55,187 bases of DNA. It comes from Clostridia bacterium (GTDB lineage: Bacteria; Bacillota; Clostridia; Oscillospirales; CAG-272). The translations under genes and the position numbers were made by a program. The notes beneath the pieces are model-generated. The model saw nothing but the letters and a program-made list of their open reading frames with translations, was not told where the DNA came from and made no database searches. This document shows positions 30,225-43,399 of the stretch, piece after piece. Location of the stretch: positions 1-55,187 of the forward strand of contig JAFTON010000098.1 in NCBI GenBank assembly GCA_017463765.1. The letters are read 5' to 3'. Positions within the stretch are counted from its first letter, which is position 1, and the number at the start of each line of letters is the position of its first letter.

Positions 30225-30305
30225 CTCAGCTCCACAAAGGTTATTTAAGATTATTATATCTACAAATAAATAAAATAATTACGAAAATAAGGAGAAAAGA
30301 AAAAA

Positions 30306-30776
30306 ATGGTAGTAATTGAAATGGAAAACGGTGGTAAAATCGAGCTTGAGCTCTACCCTGAGGCTGCACCTAAGACGGTGGCAAATTTCCTTAAGCTTGT
30401 AGGCGAAGGCTTTTACGACGGACTTATCTTCCACAGAGTAATTCCCGGCTTTATGATTCAGGGTGGCGATCCTCAGGGCACAGGTATGGGTGGCGCAAAG
30501 GAAAATATTGTGGGCGAGTTTAAGGCTAACGGCTTTGATAATCCTATAAAGCATGTTCGTGGCGTTATCTCCATGGCAAGAGCATACAATCCTAACTCTG
30601 CATCCTCTCAGTTCTTTATCATGCATGCAAATGCACCCCATCTTGACGGTCAGTATGCAGCCTTTGGTAAGGTTGTAAGCGGAATGGAGGTTGTCGATGA
30701 AATTGCATCTATCCCCACCGATTACAGCGACAGACCTAAGATTGCTATGAGAATGAAAAAGGTTTACGTTAAGTAA
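30306..30776 (+). CDS. cyclophilin-type peptidyl-prolyl cis-trans isomerase
   Basis: APKTVANF, FHRVIPGFMIQGGDP, ISMARA, SQFFI, LDGQYAAFGKV. Confidence 0.95.
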   Translation: MVVIEMENGGKIELELYPEAAPKTVANFLKLVGEGFYDGLIFHRVIPGFMIQGGDPQGTGMGGAKENIVGEFKANGFDNPIKHVRGVISMARAYNPNSASSQFFIMHANAPHLDGQYAAFGKVVSGMEVVDEIASIPTDYSDRPKIAMRMKKVYVK

Positions 30777-30802
30777 ATTATCTTTAGCTTTTTATAAATA
30801 TT

Positions 30803-30836
30803 AACGGCAGAAGCGAAGAGCCTCTGCCGTTTTTTT
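30803..30836. terminator. terminator between convergent genes
   Basis: AACGGCAGA / TCTGCCGTT followed by T-run. Confidence 0.75.
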
Positions 30837-30857
30837 CATGCATTTATGTATAACTAA

Positions 30858-32426
30858 TTACTTTTTAAAAATACCGTTGAAGATTTCCTCAAGTCTTCTG
30901 AGGAAGAGGAGGATTGCCTTAGCAATCTTCTGAATAAGAGTCATCTCCTTTACAGGCTCATCATCACCGTTATCACCATCTGCAGGTCCGTCGATAATTC
31001 CATCACCACCCTGGTTGCCGTTGCCACCACTTACGGAGTGCCATGCGTTGTTATCATCAGCACTGCCCTCGTTGTAAAGGCACTCGTGACCGTTGCTGAG
31101 ATATACCTTGCCGTCGGTAGGAATGATAAGGTCGGGAGTCTGCTTAAGAGTGTCTACCTGCCAATCGCCACCGTTGGTGAAGAGGATACCCCAATAGCCA
31201 GCAGGAACGGTTGCGTAGTAGTAGCCGTCCTCACCCTGCTCCATAGGAGTACCGGGGAAAGCAAACGCCTCAGTACCGTCAACGTTCCAATAATAGATCC
31301 ATACCTCACCCCAGCCTGCATCATCCTTAACGTAAACAGTTACGTCCTCGGTGGTATCTTCGGGAGGAATGGGAGGAACATAGTCCTTAATATCGCCCCA
31401 CTGAGAAGTTCCGTTATCGTAAATCGCACCGTCCCCGGGAATTACAAGGTCTGCGCTCTGGGTGCCGTTACCGTCGTTGAATACTACAGAATCGCATACG
31501 GAAGGAAGCTCGATAAAGTAAAGAAGCTTTTCGTCATCCCATTCCATTTCAAGACCGGGCCATGTTGTATAAGCAACGTCATTGCTGCCACCCTCAACCC
31601 ATGCGTGTACGAAAACGGTGTTCCAATATGCGCTGTCGCCAACGTAGATGGTTATCTTATCACAGTTCTCAAAGTCTACGGTAGGAGCAGAAGGAAGATT
31701 GGGGTCTGCGCCTGTAGATGCAGAAAGGACATGTCCGACCGTACCTGTTGCAGGATCAAAGGTAATAGTAACGTTCTGCTCCTCGGTAAGAGAGAATGAA
31801 TAATTACCGAACTCGCCGTTACCCTGAGTACCCCAGGACTGATTCCAGCTGTGATCAAGAGCAACCTTACACTCATAATCGCCTGCAGGAATACCTGTAA
31901 AGGTCTTTTCATAAAGGCCGGTTTCTGAATTGAGAGTCATATCATTGTATGTATTGGAAACATCCCACTCAGAACCGCAGAGACCTGCAACACCTGCAAC
32001 AGTGTAGGTGCCCTGAGAGCTACCCTGATTTCCACCGTTAGGATCGCTCTTCCAATGGCCGTTACCACTTGCCGTATCGATTATATAGGTATCACCGGCA
32101 ACAAGAGTAAGGTCACCCGACTGAGCAATCTTATAGTCCCAACTATAATCCGAACCCTGAGGAAAGGCAACAAATATGATATTCGAAATACCGGCAGGCA
32201 GAGTGCATTCGTAGATGCCGTCGCCATCAGAATCTGTCATATCAAACCATTGTTCCCCACCGTCCCAGGTATAAATAGCAAATGAGGTATTCTCGGTGCT
32301 CCATTTGCCTGGATCAAGATATACTTTTGATCCCTCTGCAGCATGTGCAGTGAGCGTAACCATGCTTACAAGCAAGGTCATTACAACCAGCAATGCAAGC
32401 AAGAACTTACGAGTATTGTTTTTCAT
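30858..32426 (-). CDS. secreted non-catalytic multi-module starch-binding-type protein A (CBM26-like x3 plus X25-like), C-terminal amphipathic helix
   Basis: Signal peptide ending AHA; modules W..V..HAW...WPG..M, YTVAGVAGLCGSEWD..N.MT..G.YEK.F..IPAGDYECKV...W..SWG; no GH13 motifs seen. Confidence 0.75.
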   Translation of the reverse strand: MKNNTRKFLLALLVVMTLLVSMVTLTAHAAEGSKVYLDPGKWSTENTSFAIYTWDGGEQWFDMTDSDGDGIYECTLPAGISNIIFVAFPQGSDYSWDYKIAQSGDLTLVAGDTYIIDTASGNGHWKSDPNGGNQGSSQGTYTVAGVAGLCGSEWDVSNTYNDMTLNSETGLYEKTFTGIPAGDYECKVALDHSWNQSWGTQGNGEFGNYSFSLTEEQNVTITFDPATGTVGHVLSASTGADPNLPSAPTVDFENCDKITIYVGDSAYWNTVFVHAWVEGGSNDVAYTTWPGLEMEWDDEKLLYFIELPSVCDSVVFNDGNGTQSADLVIPGDGAIYDNGTSQWGDIKDYVPPIPPEDTTEDVTVYVKDDAGWGEVWIYYWNVDGTEAFAFPGTPMEQGEDGYYYATVPAGYWGILFTNGGDWQVDTLKQTPDLIIPTDGKVYLSNGHECLYNEGSADDNNAWHSVSGGNGNQGGDGIIDGPADGDNGDDEPVKEMTLIQKIAKAILLFLRRLEEIFNGIFKK

Positions 32427-32468
32427 AATATTTTCCTTTCTTTTATGTATTTATAAATACTCTTATAC

Positions 32469-32539
32469 ATTATATCACAGCAAAAAAAATATTACAATAT
32501 ACTTTTAAAGAAATAAGTATTTTTGTTAAAGTTGAACAA
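32469..32539 (-). promoter_or_regulatory. promoter TTGTAA-17-TGnTATAAT plus upstream 17-bp box (copy 1)
   Basis: -10 at 32474-32469, -35 at 32497-32492, box TTGTTAAAGTTGAACAA at 32523-32539. Confidence 0.75.
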
Positions 32540-32558
32540 AATAATTTTTAATTTTTAT

Positions 32559-32591
32559 AAAAAAAGCCCTTGCGTCATATGACGCAAGGGC
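32559..32591 (-). terminator. intrinsic terminator of protein B gene
   Basis: Perfect palindrome GCCCTTGCGTCATATGACGCAAGGGC followed by T7 on the minus strand. Confidence 0.82.
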
Positions 32592-32627
32592 CAAAAATGT
32601 TAGTTTACTTTTTATTAATTAAGATTA

Positions 32628-35600
32628 TTATTTCTTAACGAAAAAGTTCTTGAAGAAATCAGCAATCTTAGCGAAGAACTCGGTAATAGCCTTAATAATC
32701 TTCTGAATAAGAGTGAGCTCGGGCTCTACAGGATTCTCATCTACAGGAGGAACGTAGTTAGGATCTTCCTCACCACACTCGCACTTGCCCTCAACGAACT
32801 CATGCTCGTGAGCAGGCTTTTCGGAACGGGTGATAGTGTAGGTGTACTCGCCAACCTCGCAGATATAGTTACCTGCAGCATCTATGCCATCATATCTGAA
32901 GCCAACAAGATATGTACCTGCAACAAGCTCTACCTCGATAGAATCGGTAATAGCGCCTGTGAGATTGTCAACATTCCATACGAAGGGAGCTGTATCGGGA
33001 ACTGTTGCCTGATTGGGATAATCGGGCCAGATGAAGAATGTAAGAGGAGAAAGACCGGAGAATGTATAAATGCCATCCTCTTCAACGGTGAGGTAAAGCC
33101 ACTCATAACCCTTATCCTTAAGAGCCTGATTAAGAACGTACTTGTTCTCGCCAACAACGATAGTGTTAACTGCGGGAAGCTCTACGTCGTCGCCAAGCTT
33201 CTCAGCCTTAACGGTGAACTCACCGGTAACGCCTTCCTTACCTACGCATACGTAGTAGGTGCCTGCAGTAAGCTCAGCAGTACCAGTCCACTTGCAAAGG
33301 CAAGCGTCAGCGGAAGCAAGGTTCATCTCGGAGTAAATGTAGCAGTTGAGATCTGCAGAAGAAACGGTGTAGATACCGTCCTCAGCAACTACGAACTCAA
33401 GCCAAGCGATTGCACTGCCGGTAAGGTTAACAACAGAACCGTCGATAGTAACGGTGTTATCACCAAGCTGGAGTGCGGGAAGCTCGGGCTCCTCAACGTC
33501 GCCACCGCCGATAGCGGTCTTCTCAACGTTAACGGTTGCAACACCTGCGGTTGCGGGGCCGGCAGTAAATGCTACGCATACGTAGTAGGTGCCAGCATCA
33601 AGCTCGGTTCCGGTAACTGCCGCGTATGCGGAGTCGTAAACGAGAGCAAGGATGCCCTCACCGGTGAAGGTGTAGTTAGCCTTCTCGGTTACCTCGAAGG
33701 GAGCCCATACGATGTAATAGCCATAATCGTTGGAAAGTGCATCGGTGATAAGAAGCTTGTTAGCACCGATTACAAGAGTGTTAACCCAAGCGGACTTTGT
33801 AACAGCAACGTTGAACTCGCCAACTGCACCGTTACCAACGCAGATGAGGTAGTTGCCTGCCTCAAGGTTAGCCTTACCTGTGCCGCCGCAAAGGAGAGCT
33901 GTGCCGTCTGCAGAGAAGATCATTGCAAGAGCACCGTTGTCGCCTACGAAGCTATAGAAAGCGTTCTCGTCTGCAACGAAGGGAACCCACTCGATAGGAA
34001 GGTTGTAAGCGTTTACAAAGTTACCGCTAACAACGATCTTGTTGGTATCGCCAACTACGAGAGTATTAACGTGAGGAGGAACGTAATTAGGATCCTCTGC
34101 ACCACACTCGCACTTACCGTTAACGAAGTTGTGCTCGTGAGCGGGAGCATCCTGAGTAAGAGCAACCTTGTAGAAATAGTTGGTTCCACCCTTGTGGCCA
34201 AGATAATATGTACCTGCTGCTTCAATTTCGAAGGTAGTGATGTAAAGTCCATCCTTTACGGAGTCGGTGCTAGAACTATGAATAGCAGTAATAGCAGAAC
34301 CGTCAAATGTATAAATCTCTATATTTCTACCATCGGAACCGCACTTCCACCAAACTGTAATGGTAGCAGGACCATTGGTAGTGAACATAATGCTTCGAGA
34401 TACATCTCCACTTTCAACCTTTGTATTACCATTGAAGGAAAGACGAAGTTCGGATTCATAACCATCCTCAAATGTTGCTTTGGAGCTCTGAGTCTTACCC
34501 TTATCACCAAAGATAAGAGTGAAGAATTCATTAGAACCTACCTTAAGAGTATCGCCCTTAGAAACATCGCCCTCGTTTATAGTAGGAAGATCCTTACTTT
34601 CAAATACATTGGTAATCTTGTCGGAAACGTCAGGAGCTACGTAGTCAGGATCTTCCTCACCACATACGGAGCACTTACCTTCTGCGAAGGAGTGAGCGCC
34701 TGCTACCTTAACGTTCATCAGGTTAGTAAGCTGAGTCTGAGCCTCGTCAGTCCAAGCAGTACCACAGTAAGAGCAGTACCAGTATTCAACGTTACCGTCA
34801 TAGGACTGGCAATCGGTACCAGCCTTAGCCTCTACGTGTACTACGTCGTGCTTTGCATCGGGATTGGAAACCTCGTAGCACTCCTGACAAACAGGATCAC
34901 AGGGATAGAAGTAGCTATGTACGTGAGGAGGATCAGAGATGGTGAATGTGATCTTCTCTGTTGTGCTGTCGAAAGCAATTGTAAGCATTTTTCCTGCGGG
35001 AACCTCAACCCATGCATTATCGTCGGTCTGACCTGCAGCTGCACCACCCCAGCACTTAGTCCAGCCAAGATCAAGGCAAACCTTGAGGTTGGGCCAGATT
35101 GTTGCATCACCCTTGTTTACGTAAGAAATAGTCCAAAGACCGGTTTCCTTGTCGTATGTCATCTTGTTAGCAGTATTAGTGGGATCCCATGTTGTTCCAA
35201 AGAGATCAGCATTATCGCCTGCTATGGTGTAAACGGGAGCAAATCCACATACAGAGCACTTGGAGCCATCGTCGAACTTGTGGCCAAGAGCCTCGCCCTG
35301 AGACTGACCACACTTAGAGCATATCTGAGGCTTGTCGCAGGTTGCATCGGACCAATCGTGCTCGCACTCTACAACAGGAAGCTCAACATTAACGCTTACG
35401 GTAGTGCCTTTAAGTGTAATGGTTACAGTGCTACCTGCATCAGCAACAGTGTAAAGCTTATCAGCAGAGGGATATGCAGTACCCCAAGCGTGATCGCGAA
35501 CAACCTTAAACGCATAAGAGCCTGCTGAAACCTTTTCATATACCTTAGTATAGGTACCGGTTTCTGCATCATAGGTCATATCGTTTGCGGTGTTACCGGT

Positions 35601-36206
35601 ATCCCACTCGGTACCAAGATGTGCACCCGAGCCAGCTACGGTGAAGGTAGCCTGCACGTTACATCTGGTGCAGAGGTGATCGGAATTGAAGGAGTGACCA
35701 AGAGCGGAAACTACGGGGTCACCACAATCAAGACAGGTCTGAGCTGTAGTACAGGTTGCTTCAGCACTGAGATTGGTGTGAAGGCAGGTAGAACCGTAGG
35801 TAGACCAGGTTCCTCCACCACTGTCCCAGGTACCTTCCTTAACGGTGAAATGATTTGCACCGGAGGTAGGGATGGTAAGGTCTGCGGTCTGGTTCCACTT
35901 GTTATTCCAGTTGTTAGCTGCTGCAGAGGGATTCATTCTGCAGAAGATAACGTTAGGATATACCTTATCGGTAGGAACCTTAACCTCATATACGCCGTCG
36001 CCGTCAGCGTCAGTCATACTAACCCAGGTTTCGCCGTTGCCGAAGAAGTAAGCCGCGAAACGAGCATTGCTCTGCTTCCAATTCGCATTGGGAGTGAGAT
36101 AAAGTGTCTCGGGCTGGCTTGCAGCACTTGCAAAGAGGGTTGCAACGCTCATCATCATTGCAAGAACAATAACGAGAGCAACAAGAATTTTGCGTGTGTT
36201 TCTCAT
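32628..36206 (-). CDS. large secreted modular protein B (CBM26-like, two X25-like, Cys/His spacers, four unknown beta repeats), C-terminal amphipathic helix
   Basis: Signal peptide ending ASA; LYLTPNANW..ARFAAY..W..MTD.DGDGVY..IFCRMNP..WNQT module; biased codon usage consistent with high expression. Confidence 0.75.
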   Translation of the reverse strand: MRNTRKILVALVIVLAMMMSVATLFASAASQPETLYLTPNANWKQSNARFAAYFFGNGETWVSMTDADGDGVYEVKVPTDKVYPNVIFCRMNPSAAANNWNNKWNQTADLTIPTSGANHFTVKEGTWDSGGGTWSTYGSTCLHTNLSAEATCTTAQTCLDCGDPVVSALGHSFNSDHLCTRCNVQATFTVAGSGAHLGTEWDTGNTANDMTYDAETGTYTKVYEKVSAGSYAFKVVRDHAWGTAYPSADKLYTVADAGSTVTITLKGTTVSVNVELPVVECEHDWSDATCDKPQICSKCGQSQGEALGHKFDDGSKCSVCGFAPVYTIAGDNADLFGTTWDPTNTANKMTYDKETGLWTISYVNKGDATIWPNLKVCLDLGWTKCWGGAAAGQTDDNAWVEVPAGKMLTIAFDSTTEKITFTISDPPHVHSYFYPCDPVCQECYEVSNPDAKHDVVHVEAKAGTDCQSYDGNVEYWYCSYCGTAWTDEAQTQLTNLMNVKVAGAHSFAEGKCSVCGEEDPDYVAPDVSDKITNVFESKDLPTINEGDVSKGDTLKVGSNEFFTLIFGDKGKTQSSKATFEDGYESELRLSFNGNTKVESGDVSRSIMFTTNGPATITVWWKCGSDGRNIEIYTFDGSAITAIHSSSTDSVKDGLYITTFEIEAAGTYYLGHKGGTNYFYKVALTQDAPAHEHNFVNGKCECGAEDPNYVPPHVNTLVVGDTNKIVVSGNFVNAYNLPIEWVPFVADENAFYSFVGDNGALAMIFSADGTALLCGGTGKANLEAGNYLICVGNGAVGEFNVAVTKSAWVNTLVIGANKLLITDALSNDYGYYIVWAPFEVTEKANYTFTGEGILALVYDSAYAAVTGTELDAGTYYVCVAFTAGPATAGVATVNVEKTAIGGGDVEEPELPALQLGDNTVTIDGSVVNLTGSAIAWLEFVVAEDGIYTVSSADLNCYIYSEMNLASADACLCKWTGTAELTAGTYYVCVGKEGVTGEFTVKAEKLGDDVELPAVNTIVVGENKYVLNQALKDKGYEWLYLTVEEDGIYTFSGLSPLTFFIWPDYPNQATVPDTAPFVWNVDNLTGAITDSIEVELVAGTYLVGFRYDGIDAAGNYICEVGEYTYTITRSEKPAHEHEFVEGKCECGEEDPNYVPPVDENPVEPELTLIQKIIKAITEFFAKIADFFKNFFVKK

Positions 36207-36248
36207 AAATATTTCCTTTCTTTATTTTATTTTGTTCACGCTATTGTA

Positions 36249-36319
36249 ATTATAGCATAATTATTTATTATTTACAATATATTTTTTGTAAATGTTTGTT
36301 TTTTGTAAGAAATGCACAA
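36249..36319 (-). promoter_or_regulatory. promoter TTGTAA-17-TGnTATAAT plus upstream 17-bp box (copy 2)
   Basis: -10 at 36254-36249, -35 at 36277-36272, box TTGTAAGAAATGCACAA at 36303-36319. Confidence 0.75.
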
Positions 36320-36396
36320 TAAATTTTGAGTTTTTAGCTTTGTAGGGGTTAGAAGTTGGTTAAAATGTGAAATATGTTCATATTTTATTTATAAAC

Positions 36397-36429
36397 AAAA
36401 ATCCCCTGCACCCATAGGAGTGCAAGGGA
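36397..36429 (-). terminator. intrinsic terminator of protein C gene
   Basis: TCCCTTGCAC...GTGCAGGGGA stem followed by T-run on the minus strand. Confidence 0.7.
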
Positions 36430-36439
36430 CTCGAAAATA

Positions 36440-37981
36440 TTACTTCTTAAAGCCTGCAAAAAGGTTCTTGAACCAAGCGCTGATATTAGCGAAGAAATCG
36501 GTAACAGCCTTGAGAATCTTCTGCACAAGAGTAAGCTCGCCGGGCTGCTCGGGCTCGGGATCTGTGGGAGTTTCGGGATCGGGATTAGGATCGGGATCGG
36601 GATTAGGATCGGGATCGGGGGTAGGATCAGGATCGGGGGTAGGATCAGGATCAGGGGTAGGATCGGGATCGGGATCGGGATCTACGGGAGCCTGAGGCGC
36701 TGTAACAGTAGCCGAAGGAATGCCATCCTTAAAGCTGATGGTTACGGTGCTGCCGTCCTCTGCAACGTTGATATAGCAGTTATCTGCACTACCATTTTCA
36801 CCGTAGGATACGGTCCAGGTCTTGTTCTCGGTAACCTTGAAGTGATACTCGCCTGCGAAAACGTTCTCATAAACCTTAACGTATGCGCCTGTCTCCTCAT
36901 CGTAAACAAGGAGGTTGGTCTCATCACTTGCATTCCAGCTTGTGCCAAAGAAGTTTACGCCACCGGGTATATACTCACCGTTAGCGTCCATCATAACGTC
37001 ACCTGCGACGATATAAACCTTATCGGTATCGGGGGTAGGATCGGGGTCTACGGGGGTATCCGAAGCCGTTACGGTTACAGAAGGAACGTTATCTTTAAAT
37101 GTAATTGTAACGGTACTGCCCGCCTGTGCAACGTTAATGTAGCAGTTATCTGCGCCACCGTTTGCACCGTAGGATTCGTTCCAGGACTTGTCAACGGTAA
37201 CCTTAAAATCATATTCACCTGCAGCAACTCCCGTATAAACCTTCACGAAGCAGCCCAGCTCTGCATCATATTCAAGCTTATTTGCCTCATTGGTAACATC
37301 CCAGCTTGTGCCAAAGATGGTGGCATTGTCACCTGTCTGATACTCGCTGTTGATCTGGTGAACGTCACCAGCGATAATGTAAGTAGCATAAGCATCGCAG
37401 TTAGCGCAAGCACCGTCTGCACCGTAAGTATGGCCTGTCGCAAAGATTGGCGCAGTATAAGTCTCTCCACACTTGGAGCAGAGGTGAGAAATCTCTCCGT
37501 TCTCGGTACAGGAGGCAGGAGTAATAACACTTCCCTCACCTGAGGGAGAATGAATGCACTCACCTGTTTCGATAAGAGACCAGACTCCATTAGTACCGGA
37601 ATCCCACTGACCCTCGTTGATAGTATAGTGGTTATTCTTACCGTCATACTTAAGGTCACCTGTCTGATTCCACTTATTATTCCAATTGTTATCGGAAGTA
37701 CCGGGATTCATTCTGCAGAAGATGATGTTTTCAACGCCTGCGGGAATAACGCATGCATATACACCGTCGCCGTCAGGGTCGGTCATATCAAACCATGTGT
37801 TACCGATATCCCAGGTGTATGCAGCAAAGCGAGCGCCATCTATCTTCCAGTTAGAATTGGGTGTCAGGAAGATGGTTGTATCACCTGTGGTTTTTGCCGC
37901 GAAGGCAGTAATTGTTGTCATGCTCATCAGAAGTGTAAAAACTACAAGAAGAGCAACTAAAATTTTGCGTGTGCTTTTCAT
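36440..37981 (-). CDS. secreted starch-binding-type protein C (CBM26-like plus two X25-like, PD linker), C-terminal amphipathic helix
   Basis: Signal peptide ending AFA; paralogous to proteins B and D; two YIIAGDV...SW...N.L.YD.E.G..VKVY..V.AGEY.FKV...W..SYG modules. Confidence 0.78.
   Translation of the reverse strand: MKSTRKILVALLVVFTLLMSMTTITAFAAKTTGDTTIFLTPNSNWKIDGARFAAYTWDIGNTWFDMTDPDGDGVYACVIPAGVENIIFCRMNPGTSDNNWNNKWNQTGDLKYDGKNNHYTINEGQWDSGTNGVWSLIETGECIHSPSGEGSVITPASCTENGEISHLCSKCGETYTAPIFATGHTYGADGACANCDAYATYIIAGDVHQINSEYQTGDNATIFGTSWDVTNEANKLEYDAELGCFVKVYTGVAAGEYDFKVTVDKSWNESYGANGGADNCYINVAQAGSTVTITFKDNVPSVTVTASDTPVDPDPTPDTDKVYIVAGDVMMDANGEYIPGGVNFFGTSWNASDETNLLVYDEETGAYVKVYENVFAGEYHFKVTENKTWTVSYGENGSADNCYINVAEDGSTVTISFKDGIPSATVTAPQAPVDPDPDPDPTPDPDPTPDPDPTPDPDPNPDPDPNPDPETPTDPEPEQPGELTLVQKILKAVTDFFANISAWFKNLFAGFKK
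36574..36687 (-). repeat. degenerate 6/18-bp tandem repeat encoding a (PDPDPT/PDPDPN)n linker
   Basis: Repeated GGATCG/GGATCA/GGGTAG units. Confidence 0.9.
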
Positions 37982-38019
37982 AAAAGACCCTTTCTTTTTT
38001 TATTTTTTGTACCATATGG

Positions 38020-38090
38020 ATTATAACACATTTGGGTTATTTTTACAATATGTCTTCGAAAAAATGTTTACTTTTGTAAATTGTGCACAA
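38020..38090 (-). promoter_or_regulatory. promoter TTGTAA-17-TGnTATAAT plus upstream 17-bp box (copy 3)
   Basis: -10 at 38025-38020, -35 at 38048-38043, box TTGTAAATTGTGCACAA at 38074-38090. Confidence 0.75.
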
Positions 38091-38113
38091 AAGGATTTGT
38101 AATTACAATACAC

Positions 38114-38145
38114 AAAAAGCCCCCGTATTTACTTAATACAGGGGC
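38114..38145 (-). terminator. intrinsic terminator of protein D gene
   Basis: GCCCCTGTATT...AATACGGGGGC stem followed by T5 on the minus strand. Confidence 0.7.
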
Positions 38146-38165
38146 AAAACGTATGCTTTTGTAAA

Positions 38166-39116
38166 TTATCTTTCATTTCCACCGAAAAGACTTCTGAAAA
38201 AGTTCACTATTGCGAGCCATATTTTTTGGAAGAAGCTTAGCTTTTCCTCAGACTCACTTCCGTCGAAGTTGTCCGAATCATCAGAAGAATCGGATTGATC
38301 GTCATCGGGGTTTTCCACGGGGGTGTCGATAACCATTGCTGCGCAAGTAACCTTGCCGTCCTTAAAGCTGATTACAACCGTGCTGCCGTCCTTATCAACC
38401 TTAAGATAGCAATTCTCACCGTCATTACCGTAAGAAACGTCCCATGACTTATTTTCAGCTATCTTGAAGTGATACTCGCCTGCAGCCACGTTCTCATAAA
38501 TCTTAACGTAACAGCCGGATTCCTCGTCGTAGGTCATTCTGTTGTTTTCATCCGAAACATCCCATTTTGAAACGAACAGAGTATCATTATCACCCTTCCT
38601 GTAGCTATCGCCATCCTTCATTACATTGCCTGCAACAATATAGAACAGCTCCTCGCCACACTTTATGCAAACATCATTTTCATAGGAATGGGCGCAGGCA
38701 TTGCTGTCAAATACAGACCAGCGTCCCTCTCCGTTGCTCCATGCACCTGTGGCGATGGTATAATGATTTTTGGTTCCGTCAAATTTCAGATCATCCGTCT
38801 GATTCCAGGTTGTGCTCCAGCCATTGTGAGTTTCACCGGGATCAAGACGGCAGAAAATAATGCTTGTATACCCCGAAGGAAGAATTCCTTCATAAACGCC
38901 GTCACCGTCAGAGTCCTTCATCTCTATCCACAGATAAGAACCACTCTCATCCCAGACATACATAGCGAAACGGGCGTTATCAGACCTCCAGTTTGAGTTT
39001 GGAGTAAGGTAAATCTCCACGTCACCGTCAGCAGCATAGGCTGTAAATCCTATGAGACCGATAATCAAGGTCAGAATAGCTAAAAGAGTCAACAAAGAAT
39101 AACGAATGCTTTTCAT
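38166..39116 (-). CDS. secreted starch-binding-type protein D (CBM26-like plus X25-like), C-terminal amphipathic helix
   Basis: Signal peptide ending AYA; YLTPNSNW..NARFAMYVW...IFCRLDP..WNQT module; acidic linker; ends LSFFQKIWLAIVNFFRSLFG. Confidence 0.78.
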   Translation of the reverse strand: MKSIRYSLLTLLAILTLIIGLIGFTAYAADGDVEIYLTPNSNWRSDNARFAMYVWDESGSYLWIEMKDSDGDGVYEGILPSGYTSIIFCRLDPGETHNGWSTTWNQTDDLKFDGTKNHYTIATGAWSNGEGRWSVFDSNACAHSYENDVCIKCGEELFYIVAGNVMKDGDSYRKGDNDTLFVSKWDVSDENNRMTYDEESGCYVKIYENVAAGEYHFKIAENKSWDVSYGNDGENCYLKVDKDGSTVVISFKDGKVTCAAMVIDTPVENPDDDQSDSSDDSDNFDGSESEEKLSFFQKIWLAIVNFFRSLFGGNER

Positions 39117-39138
39117 ACGGGTATCCTTTCAGAAAAAT

Positions 39139-39786
39139 TTATTTCAGCATATCAGCCACATCATCGGGTGCATCGGCAAGATAGGTGAAGCCTGCGTTTT
39201 CAAGCTCCTCTCTGCTGCCGTGTCCCCATCTGACACCAAGACTGTCAATTCCACATTTTTTTGCGCCCTCGGCATCATAGATCCTGTCACCGACAAGAAT
39301 AGCCTTGCTGCGATCTGCACCTACGGCGTTAAGGCTGTAATCCAGAACCTGCCATTTATGGTCACGGTTGTCACCCGATGCGCCACCCATAAAATCAAAA
39401 TACTTATCCAGACCAAACAGCTTCATAATCTTAAGAGCAGTTCCCTCCGGCTTTGAAGTGGCAAGAACAATGGTTTTACCTGCTGCCTTAAGACTCTCAA
39501 GCATTTCAAAAACGCCCGGATAAACCTTATTATCCCACCAACCGTAGATATTGTAATACTCACGGAATTTCTCAATTGCGTCGACAACGGTTTTCTCGTT
39601 AAATCCGAATTCGTCCTGCCATACCACGTAAAGAGACGGGCCGATAAACCGTCTGAGCGACTCACGGTCACCGTAATCGGTAACACCCATTTTCTTAAAC
39701 GCATAGATGAATGCGTCCACAAGTCCCTGCTCCGGGTCGGAGAGTGTTCCGTCAAGATCAAATGCAATAACGTCGTATTTTTTCAT
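39139..39786 (-). CDS. HAD-family phosphatase (phosphoglycolate phosphatase / 5'-nucleotidase-like)
   Basis: FDLDGTL, LATSKP, VGDRIYDAEGA. Confidence 0.9.
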   Translation of the reverse strand: MKKYDVIAFDLDGTLSDPEQGLVDAFIYAFKKMGVTDYGDRESLRRFIGPSLYVVWQDEFGFNEKTVVDAIEKFREYYNIYGWWDNKVYPGVFEMLESLKAAGKTIVLATSKPEGTALKIMKLFGLDKYFDFMGGASGDNRDHKWQVLDYSLNAVGADRSKAILVGDRIYDAEGAKKCGIDSLGVRWGHGSREELENAGFTYLADAPDDVADMLK

Positions 39787-42862: not shown

Positions 42863-43399
42863 TTAATATTGATCCTCGGAATAATTGTTTAGTGCCTCTG
42901 CAACATAGGAAACAAGCAGGTCTGCAAATCCATCGCTTGACTCGATAAGAATCTCTGCCCTCTCATATCTTCCCGAGGTGGTTAATCTGTAAATCTCAGT
43001 TGGATCGAGTGTTGGCAGGTAGGAATATTTTTTCATTCCGTAGGGTGTCTTATGCGCCCTTCTCTCCTCTCTTGACTGCTTCTCAATCTTCACAATCTCA
43101 TGCAGCGCTATGCGACAGAGGGTGGTATATCTTTTTCCGGTCTGCTGTCTGACGACAAAAAGAGGAATGCCCTCGCTGTCAAATGTTATATCATAAAAGT
43201 AGATTGGCGCAATATATTTTGCGTAAAGCATAAGAGCTACGGAAAGAAGCAAAATGCCGATAAGGCTTACAATCCCCTTATAAAGTGGAATCAATGTTGA
43301 CAGCGTAATCAGAACAAAAGCTGCCATCATACAGAAAATGAATACCGATCTGGCTTTATTATTACTTGGTTTTGGTTTTACCGAAAATTCTTTTATCAC
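42863..43399 (-). CDS. hypothetical membrane protein (two TM helices)
   Basis: GGAGG RBS with GTG start; two hydrophobic segments then a soluble domain. Confidence 0.7.
   Translation of the reverse strand: MIKEFSVKPKPSNNKARSVFIFCMMAAFVLITLSTLIPLYKGIVSLIGILLLSVALMLYAKYIAPIYFYDITFDSEGIPLFVVRQQTGKRYTTLCRIALHEIVKIEKQSREERRAHKTPYGMKKYSYLPTLDPTEIYRLTTSGRYERAEILIESSDGFADLLVSYVAEALNNYSEDQY

Follow-up and report, generated by a model that had tools for sequence, protein, structure and literature searches.

We analyzed a 55,187-nucleotide (nt) stretch of DNA (positions 1 to 55,187 of contig JAFTON010000098.1, GenBank assembly GCA_017463765.1; hereafter the window) from a Clostridia bacterium of the Oscillospirales, in which a 17-base-pair (bp) palindromic box, TTGT-N9-ACAA, lies upstream of three genes encoding putative starch-binding proteins. 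The window is contig C75 of its own genome (G000), an assembly of 2.0 Mb and 44% G+C that is 80.7% complete, and its nearest named relatives are metagenome-assembled genomes (MAGs) of uncultured Clostridia, Eubacteriales, Oscillospiraceae and Faecousia, with ruminant guts as the source. Below, C-numbers are contigs of this genome, G-numbers are genomes searched and L-numbers are homologous loci. Four paralogous genes, A to D, are arranged head to tail on the minus strand (Table 1), and a terminator-like hairpin lies behind each of them, so that each of A, B and C forms its own transcription unit.

The original prediction held that A, B and C share a promoter of the form TTGTAA, 17 nt, TGnTATAAT, with precisely 25 nt between the -35 hexamer and a TTGT-N9-ACAA box upstream of it, and a pattern search reproduced every coordinate. 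The gap between box and -35 hexamer, computed from these coordinates, was 25 nt three times, and TTGTAA-N17-TATAAT spanned 32469-32497, 36249-36277 and 38020-38048, in each case on the coding (minus) strand and with both ATATTGTAA and TGnTATAAT present. The combination of a -35-like hexamer, a 17-nt spacer and TGnTATAAT is that of sigma-A (sigma-70-type) extended -10 promoters, and a consensus scanner placed the three promoters as the top promoter-like sites in 30700-39300 (10/12 matches plus TG). The distance from the end of the -10 element to the ATG is 42 nt in A and B and 38 nt in C. Counted from the predicted start, the box is centered at about -69/-70, a class-I-like position as had been proposed, and a second box near +1 was found in none of the three genes. 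A HAD hydrolase gene (39139-39786) precedes gene D by 22 nt, and a pattern search of the window found neither a box nor a promoter of the A/B/C type for it. The same order, a HAD gene followed by a homologue of these proteins, was seen in three other species (loci L068-L070).

Table 1. Genes, promoter elements and hairpins of the A-D cluster (positions in the window; aa, amino acids)
Feature	Position	Strand	Description
Gene A	30858..32426	-	522 aa, secreted; CBM26 + X25 starch-binding modules
Extended -10 of gene A, TGATATAAT	32469..32477	-	pattern search + consensus scan
-35 of gene A, TTGTAA	32492..32497	-	context ATATTGTAA
Box A, TTGTTCAACTTTAACAA	32523..32539	-	TTGT-N9-ACAA, 25 nt upstream of gene A -35
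Terminator-like hairpin behind gene B	32565..32592	-	separates B from A promoter
Gene B	32628..36206	-	1192 aa, secreted; X25 module, Cys-rich repeats
Extended -10 of gene B, TGCTATAAT	36249..36257	-	pattern search + consensus scan
-35 of gene B, TTGTAA	36272..36277	-	pattern search + consensus scan
Box B, TTGTGCATTTCTTACAA	36303..36319	-	25 nt upstream of gene B -35
Terminator-like hairpin behind gene C	36399..36432	-	separates C from B promoter
Gene C	36440..37981	-	513 aa, secreted; two X25 stretches, Pro/Asp-rich linker
Extended -10 of gene C, TGTTATAAT	38020..38028	-	pattern search + consensus scan
-35 of gene C, TTGTAA	38043..38048	-	pattern search + consensus scan
Box C, TTGTGCACAATTTACAA	38074..38090	-	25 nt upstream of gene C -35
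Terminator-like hairpin behind gene D	38119..38145	-	separates D from C promoter
Gene D	38166..39116	-	316 aa, fourth paralogue, X25

By number alone, bare TTGT-N9-ACAA motifs were not significantly over-represented in the window (3 versus 0.85 expected, with at least 3 in 8 of 100 shuffles). The composite of box, N24-26, TTGTAA, N16-18 and TATAAT occurred three times in the window's own genome, with no match in the reversed control or in any of 60 other genomes, and TTGTAA-N17-TATAAT occurred four times in the 2.0-Mb genome, three of these at A, B and C. Since A, B and C are paralogous (45-52% identity across the N-terminal 300 aa), their promoters are not independent, and the decisive test is therefore conservation of the box against its flanks across species. 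We collected homologues with the N-terminal 300 aa and inspected 170 nt upstream at the 35 loci, from named MAGs of other species, that matched from the protein start, marking the best palindrome match at each locus regardless of its position.

The architecture was kept at 11 of the 35 loci, representing 10 different MAGs. The gap was 25 nt at L066, L071, L072, L073, L075, L078, L080 and L103 and 26 nt at L076 and L132, while L077 combined an N8 box with a 26-nt gap; a -35-like hexamer (TTGTAA in 7/11), a 17-nt spacer and TGnTATAAT followed at all 11. A twelfth case, a homologue from the same genus in G031, reads TTGTGCAGATTGCACGA, 25 nt, TTGAAA, 17 nt, TATAAT. The other 24 loci lacked the architecture, three of them lying behind a HAD gene as gene D does. 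Across 15 promoters of the starch-binding gene family, the gap was thus constant at 25-26 nt.

When the 12 promoters with a 25-nt gap were aligned without gaps, information content was high at -77..-58 (tTTGTnCA..tTtnACAAAAA), -38..-30 (ATATTGTAA), -15/-14 (TG) and -12..-7 (TATAAT) and near zero between these blocks, except for TT at -50/-49 and AAA at -44..-42. The same TT and AAA are kept in -51..-41 of the A, B and C promoters, inside an otherwise diverged 25-nt gap, and resemble an UP element. The core that is invariant in the starch-binding gene family is TTGTnnA-N3-TnnACAA. The original prediction was to be abandoned if the similarity of the boxes proved no greater than that of the surrounding duplicated sequence; instead, the box was better conserved than its surroundings, holding its position in at least 10 other species in which the flanks were randomized. 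Because the box was kept while its flanks diverged, it is under selection, with its distance to the promoter fixed. As far as sequence comparison can establish it, these data confirm the box as a functional, selected element rather than a duplication remnant, and they uphold the proposal of a regulator site, the box being very probably bound by a dimeric DNA-binding factor.

The box is also widespread beyond this cluster. In the window's own genome, intergenic versus coding counts of TTGT-Nx-ACAA were 12/11 for N6, 6/39 for N7, 12/47 for N8, 30/17 for N9, 15/49 for N10, 15/51 for N11, 10/15 for N12 and 10/36 for N13, so that, with crude open reading frame (ORF) calls, only the N9 spacing was enriched between genes. 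The half-site TTGTGCA occurred 188 times in this 88% coding genome (61 intergenic versus 127 coding) and was over-represented between genes, and 12 of 60 intergenic rows, corresponding to 11 distinct sites, had ACAA at the palindromic position; one perfect palindrome was present (C86 1397-1413). We then searched for the palindrome TTGTGCANNNTGCACAA (TTGTGCA-N3-TGCACAA) with at most one mismatch, using the reversed pattern as control and summing totals over tables. The genus yielded 101 sites in 36/41 genomes versus 3 for the control, and the order yielded 172 sites in 77/121 genomes, from 26 of the 28 family groups sampled, versus 15 for the control. By the same crude ORF calls, 26 of 30 genus sites were intergenic, and the pooled sites were flanked by T-rich sequence on the 5' side and by A-rich sequence on the 3' side, with an A/T-rich center. 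Since boxes A, B and C differ from this order-wide palindrome by 2-3 mismatches, they are degenerate copies of an order-wide operator; the motif, judged by its distribution, is order-wide and not local to the starch-binding cluster. Searches of the openly available literature on half-site strings, Ruminococcaceae regulons, clostridial Rex and Ruminococcus bromii amylosome promoters found no description of the motif. Likewise, the relevant passages of PMC12542648, PMC4052901, PMC8457756 (a Clostridium thermocellum study using DNA affinity purification sequencing, DAP-seq) and PMC5814915 contain no such motif.

The genes behind these sites only partly bore out the prediction of a carbohydrate regulon. 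In the window's own genome, they comprised glycan-related genes (two GH3, one GH2, a pullulanase and a GH77 4-alpha-glucanotransferase) together with two GDSL hydrolases, an AraC regulator, elongation factor G (EF-G, fusA), TypA, HSP90 and a membrane protein without an assigned family. The 29 flanking proteins inspected in the genus included EF-G (three times), rpsJ, GH77, a MalK-type ATPase, a ROK kinase, amino-acid binding proteins, argG and ABC-F. The 76 proteins flanking 40 sites in the order included MalK-type ATPases (four times), sugar ABC permeases behind AraC-type response regulators (three times), an aldose epimerase, HPr, an HPr-like protein, GH43, argG, rpsJ, a hibernation factor and NrdD. 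Genes for fermentation or redox functions were not found among the targets in the own genome or among the flanking proteins of genus and order. The targets are thus rich in carbohydrate functions, but those that recurred across genomes were fusA, rpsJ, the membrane protein, the MalK-type ATPase, GH77 and the sugar permeases, and also typA and argG; with fusA and rpsJ among them, the regulon is broader than carbohydrate. The best palindromes often precede the gene for a multipass membrane protein of ~315 aa without a Pfam family (G000:C86:1397-2591; L144, L146, L059, L143 and L044), which in several genomes is divergent from rpsJ.

At all confidently predicted promoters, the site lay upstream of the -35 hexamer, and none overlapped the core promoter. 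The exact 25-nt spacing proved to be a property of the starch-binding gene family, within which it is constant, whereas other targets had gaps of 19 to ~85 nt. The gap was 29-35 nt at GH77, GH3, GDSL and MalK genes (32 nt for GH77 and MalK); one additional target had 47 nt and three others 79-85 nt. For fusA it came to 51-53 nt (four genomes), for rpsJ to 63-65 nt and for binding-protein and argG genes to 67 nt. Within orthologous promoters, the gap was conserved. The gap values could be sorted into two series ~7 bp apart, a post hoc observation to which we gave no weight. Behind the gene that precedes fusA in the own genome, a G+C-rich hairpin (ACGGCGCGTTT...AAACGCGCCGT; G000:C78:2240-2285) carries the fusA box in its loop.

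We searched for the factor that might bind the box by comparing the motif and its distribution with those of known regulator families. Rex was rejected because the box has 17 bp versus 18 bp for TTGTGAA-N4-TTCACAA, its targets are not redox genes and the canonical site is kept separately. Rex was present in 5/5 genomes tested, 18-bp Rex-type sites numbered 87 in the genus versus 43 for the control and included recurrent orthologous sites, and the own genome has such a canonical site, TTGTTAATCTTTTAACAT, 218 bp upstream of adhE (G000:C30:6897-6914). The statement that the box is not a canonical Rex site therefore stood, as did the statement that it is not a catabolite-responsive element (cre) of CcpA: the box has no central CG, and a LacI helix-turn-helix (HTH) was found in only 2 of 5 near-complete genomes with sites, not in G004, G034 or G087. 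The sole LacI-family gene of the own genome lies behind a GH32 gene and has homologues in 3/41 genus genomes; its closest solved structures are CcpA, with a score far under the CcpA family cut-off, and no LacI/CcpA-type regulator was found in most of the genus genomes searched.

A Crp/Fnr protein is an unlikely binder, since the pentamers of the box are separated by N5 and not arranged as 5-N6-5, and no Crp-type HTH was found at E<=1e-5 in G034, which is 99% complete and has 2 palindrome sites. The own genome encodes two true Crp/Fnr proteins, and the candidate sites of their genes are different. One gene, on C76, is next to the dfx promoter, where TGTGAC-N3-GTCACA has the 6-N3-6 geometry of the box with a different core. 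At the second gene, GTGTATCAAATGATACAC (G000:C7:24823-24840) directly follows the gene's own predicted -10 element with canonical 5-N6-5 spacing and is probably an autoregulatory operator. RpiR/HexR was rejected: HTH_6 occurred in 74/121 order genomes without relation to motif counts, no box adjoined RpiR genes, and no RpiR HTH was found in motif-rich genomes such as G065, G110 and G040, yet it was found in motif-free ones. TrmB (HTH above cut-off in 0/5 genomes), DeoR (not found in the site-bearing G004 and G034) and ROK regulators (the ROK proteins are kinase-sized, leaving no room for an HTH) were likewise set aside. GntR-family genes occurred in 5/5 genomes, the frames being limited to one of 135 aa in G065 and to two of 216 and 244 aa in G034; with no common subtype evident, GntR seems an unlikely candidate.

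Several other candidates were examined and dismissed. Autoregulation by AraC was considered for the own-genome box located 80 nt upstream of the AraC gene (C20), but the recurrent orthologous sites in relatives are by the membrane-protein gene or rpsJ. The one AsnC/Lrp gene of the own genome is inside an operon without a box. Small ORFs without Pfam matches beside the sites gave translations that look like spurious frames, an HPr-like protein or a HAD-like protein and not like regulators, and the window ORFs 30279-30641 and 42863-43399 were not regulator-like. An antisense or tandem promoter that would use TTGTAA/TTGACA in the right half of the box was rejected because the profile has no conserved -10 at the required distance. 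Finally, the PhaR/AniA motif, a TGCA direct repeat with 1-nt spacing from alpha-proteobacteria as given in the part of PMC12542648 consulted, is unrelated.

A dimer site that lies upstream, keeps its position and adjoins A/T tracts is consistent with activation through contact with RNA polymerase. The explanation that we favor, with a probability of roughly 0.6, is class-I-like upstream activation by a dimeric factor acting on TTGTGCA-N3-TGCACAA throughout the order. In this model, a dimeric transcription factor would bind each box by recognizing the 17-bp palindrome; at the monocistronic genes A, B and C, its site would lie at about -77 to -61, with its center at ~-69, upstream of a sigma-A-type promoter with a TG-extended -10 element. 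A/T tracts resembling a UP element lie just downstream of the site, and the bound dimer would help RNA polymerase, probably through the C-terminal domains of its alpha subunits (alpha-CTD) seated on these tracts before the -35 hexamer. We infer binding by a protein dimer, activation and the alpha-CTD contact, with activation read from position only. The same factor would act order-wide on genes of sugar uptake, sugar metabolism and, in part, translation, and with such targets it would behave as a global carbon and growth regulator, not a starch-specific one.

A number of observations weigh against this model. The gaps at different targets do not share a single helical phase, unlike CRP class I sites, and several target promoters are a perfect TTGACA-17-TATAAT, which would lessen the need for an activator. 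None of the families tested matched both the motif and its distribution, so the factor remains hypothetical, and no regulator gene was recurrently adjacent to the sites in the genus or the order, so there is no clue from autoregulation. The relatives compared are kin and not independent samples; the promoters are consensus matches, some read by eye; and the gene calls are crude longest ORFs covering 88% of the genome. Metatranscriptomes (four runs of one study) yielded short contigs only, 92-99% alike, covering parts of the coding sequences of B and A.

Because several targets have consensus promoters, the main rival is a repressing or bidirectional role of the same factor at the same site, exerted by looping, by oligomerization along the A/T tracts or by preventing contacts between alpha-CTD and UP element, with release when starch or maltodextrin is available. 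Promoters already of consensus strength and a lack of helical phasing that is less typical of class I activators would suit a repressor, and the factors of Firmicutes sugar regulons are mostly repressors. However, no site covers a predicted core promoter or start, A, B and C have no second box near +1, and the distance, fixed at 25 nt and retained from species to species, suggests that the contact with polymerase is stereospecific; we therefore consider this role unlikely, if a serious contender. It is improbable that a further Crp/Fnr paralogue binds the box with half-sites one base closer than those of CRP. Members of that family typically take class I and class II positions, and the palindrome at dfx has the same geometry, but the two true genes of the own genome have different candidate sites, no Crp-type HTH was found in the site-bearing G034, and in the starch-binding gene family only TTGT is invariant as a core, since the second G of TGTG, its fifth base, varies.

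That the box is a lineage-specific variant of a Rex operator or a cre with altered spacing strikes us as very improbable. Its half-sites resemble those of Rex (TTGTGAA/TTGTTAA), which all five genomes tested encode, and lacO1 fits TTGT-N9-ACAA. Odd palindromes of 17-21 nt are reported for 4% of LacI-family factors in the portion of PMC4052901 consulted. Against such a variant, canonical Rex-type sites persist beside it, redox and fermentation genes are missing from the targets seen, and LacI proteins are too sparsely distributed, both as homologues of the own-genome gene and in near-complete genomes that carry sites. The paralogy of A, B and C and the insignificant count in the window would also permit a box without function, left over from tandem duplication or arisen by chance in AT-rich DNA; its retention in at least 10 other species amid randomized flanks, its order-wide excess over the control and the intergenic enrichment of N9 alone make this close to negligible.

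The favored model of upstream activation has its nearest parallel in the class I promoters of CRP, such as lac and malT, at which sites are centered near -61.5, -71.5 and so on. The box shares with these a dimer-type palindrome upstream of the -35 hexamer with a predicted center at ~-69/-70, A/T tracts between site and hexamer that could receive the alpha-CTD, and a broad carbon-related regulon. It differs in having 17 bp and an odd center (TGTGCA-N3-TGCACA versus TGTGA-N6-TCACA), in its variable helical phase, in occurring in one near-complete genome in which no Crp-type HTH was found and in its host, a Firmicute with sigma-A extended -10 promoters. HexR, of the RpiR family, recognizes TTGT-N7-8-ACAA, and the TGM motif of TrmBL1 is TATCAC-N5-GTGATA; both are global regulators of sugar metabolism that act on TTGT...ACAA or 6-N5-6 palindromes and activate or repress depending on position, but the spacing of the box is unlike that of HexR, and the distribution of RpiR and TrmB does not match the motif. 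With the clostridial Rex operator, given as TTGTTAA-N4-TTAACAA in the sections of PMC8457756 consulted, the box has in common the outer TTGT...ACAA, an A at position 7 of the half-site and A/T-rich flanks; it is one base shorter, lies upstream of promoters rather than over them and has sugar and translation genes, not redox genes, as its targets. The content of the regulon resembles catabolite control by CcpA (HPr, MalK/MsmK-type ATPase, glycoside hydrolases and sugar permeases), while the box lacks the central CG of a cre, is 17 bp versus 14-16 bp long and occurs in a genus in which LacI was not found in most genomes.

The proteins encoded by A-D have a signal-peptide-like N-terminus followed by a common N-terminal domain of ~130 aa and X25 modules. 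They resemble the starch-binding surface proteins of R. bromii in their X25 and CBM26 modules, and the closest solved relatives of protein A are R. bromii Amy16 (9qf9 was also matched) and the cohesin-containing protein 7rpy. They differ in their new N-terminal domain and a conserved, amphipathic C-terminal tail, and Pfam searches detected no cohesin or dockerin in A-D. The ~130-aa domain had no Pfam match; it recurs at 45-60% identity in MAGs titled Alistipes, Tidjanibacter, Muribaculaceae, Barnesiella and Erysipelotrichaceae (L089-L139), which suggests a widely exchanged, undescribed glycan-binding module. The C-terminal ~28 aa, (E)LTLIQKIxKAIxxFFxxIxxxFKNxFxxKK (encoded at 30858-30950, 32628-32720, 36440-36535 and 38166-38250), look amphipathic and come after a linker that is either acidic or rich in Pro; they may serve as a signal for anchoring or sorting. 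Protein B contains 36 cysteines, many as CxxC pairs between repeated modules. Two further large X25 paralogues are encoded in the own genome, on C92 (~1690 aa) and at C27:15060-20009 (1649 aa); the box-plus-25 architecture is absent from both, the C92 gene having only a weak box-like sequence that abuts its -35 hexamer, in the region upstream of C92:6685.

Carbon regulation in gut Clostridia of the Oscillospirales type, a group that includes keystone degraders of fiber and starch, is essentially uncharted. We suggest tentatively, at somewhat less than even odds, that an order-wide global regulator of an unrecognized or unexpected family serves as the functional counterpart of CcpA or CRP in CcpA-less gut Clostridia, acting by way of the odd 17-bp palindrome upstream of promoters and coupling polysaccharide capture and sugar uptake to translation capacity. 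If so, starch-binding proteins, the MalK-type ATPase, HPr and glycoside hydrolases would be tied to fusA and the rpsJ operon. The A, B and C promoters, being compact and strong with a defined upstream element, could serve genetic tools in these bacteria, and the conserved, easily scanned 17-bp site offers a handle for capturing the factor by DNA-affinity capture or DAP-seq. The site could also be used to predict co-controlled genes of polysaccharide capture and transport in uncultured species, and it allows one to ask whether growth genes such as fusA and rpsJ are wired to sugar supply.

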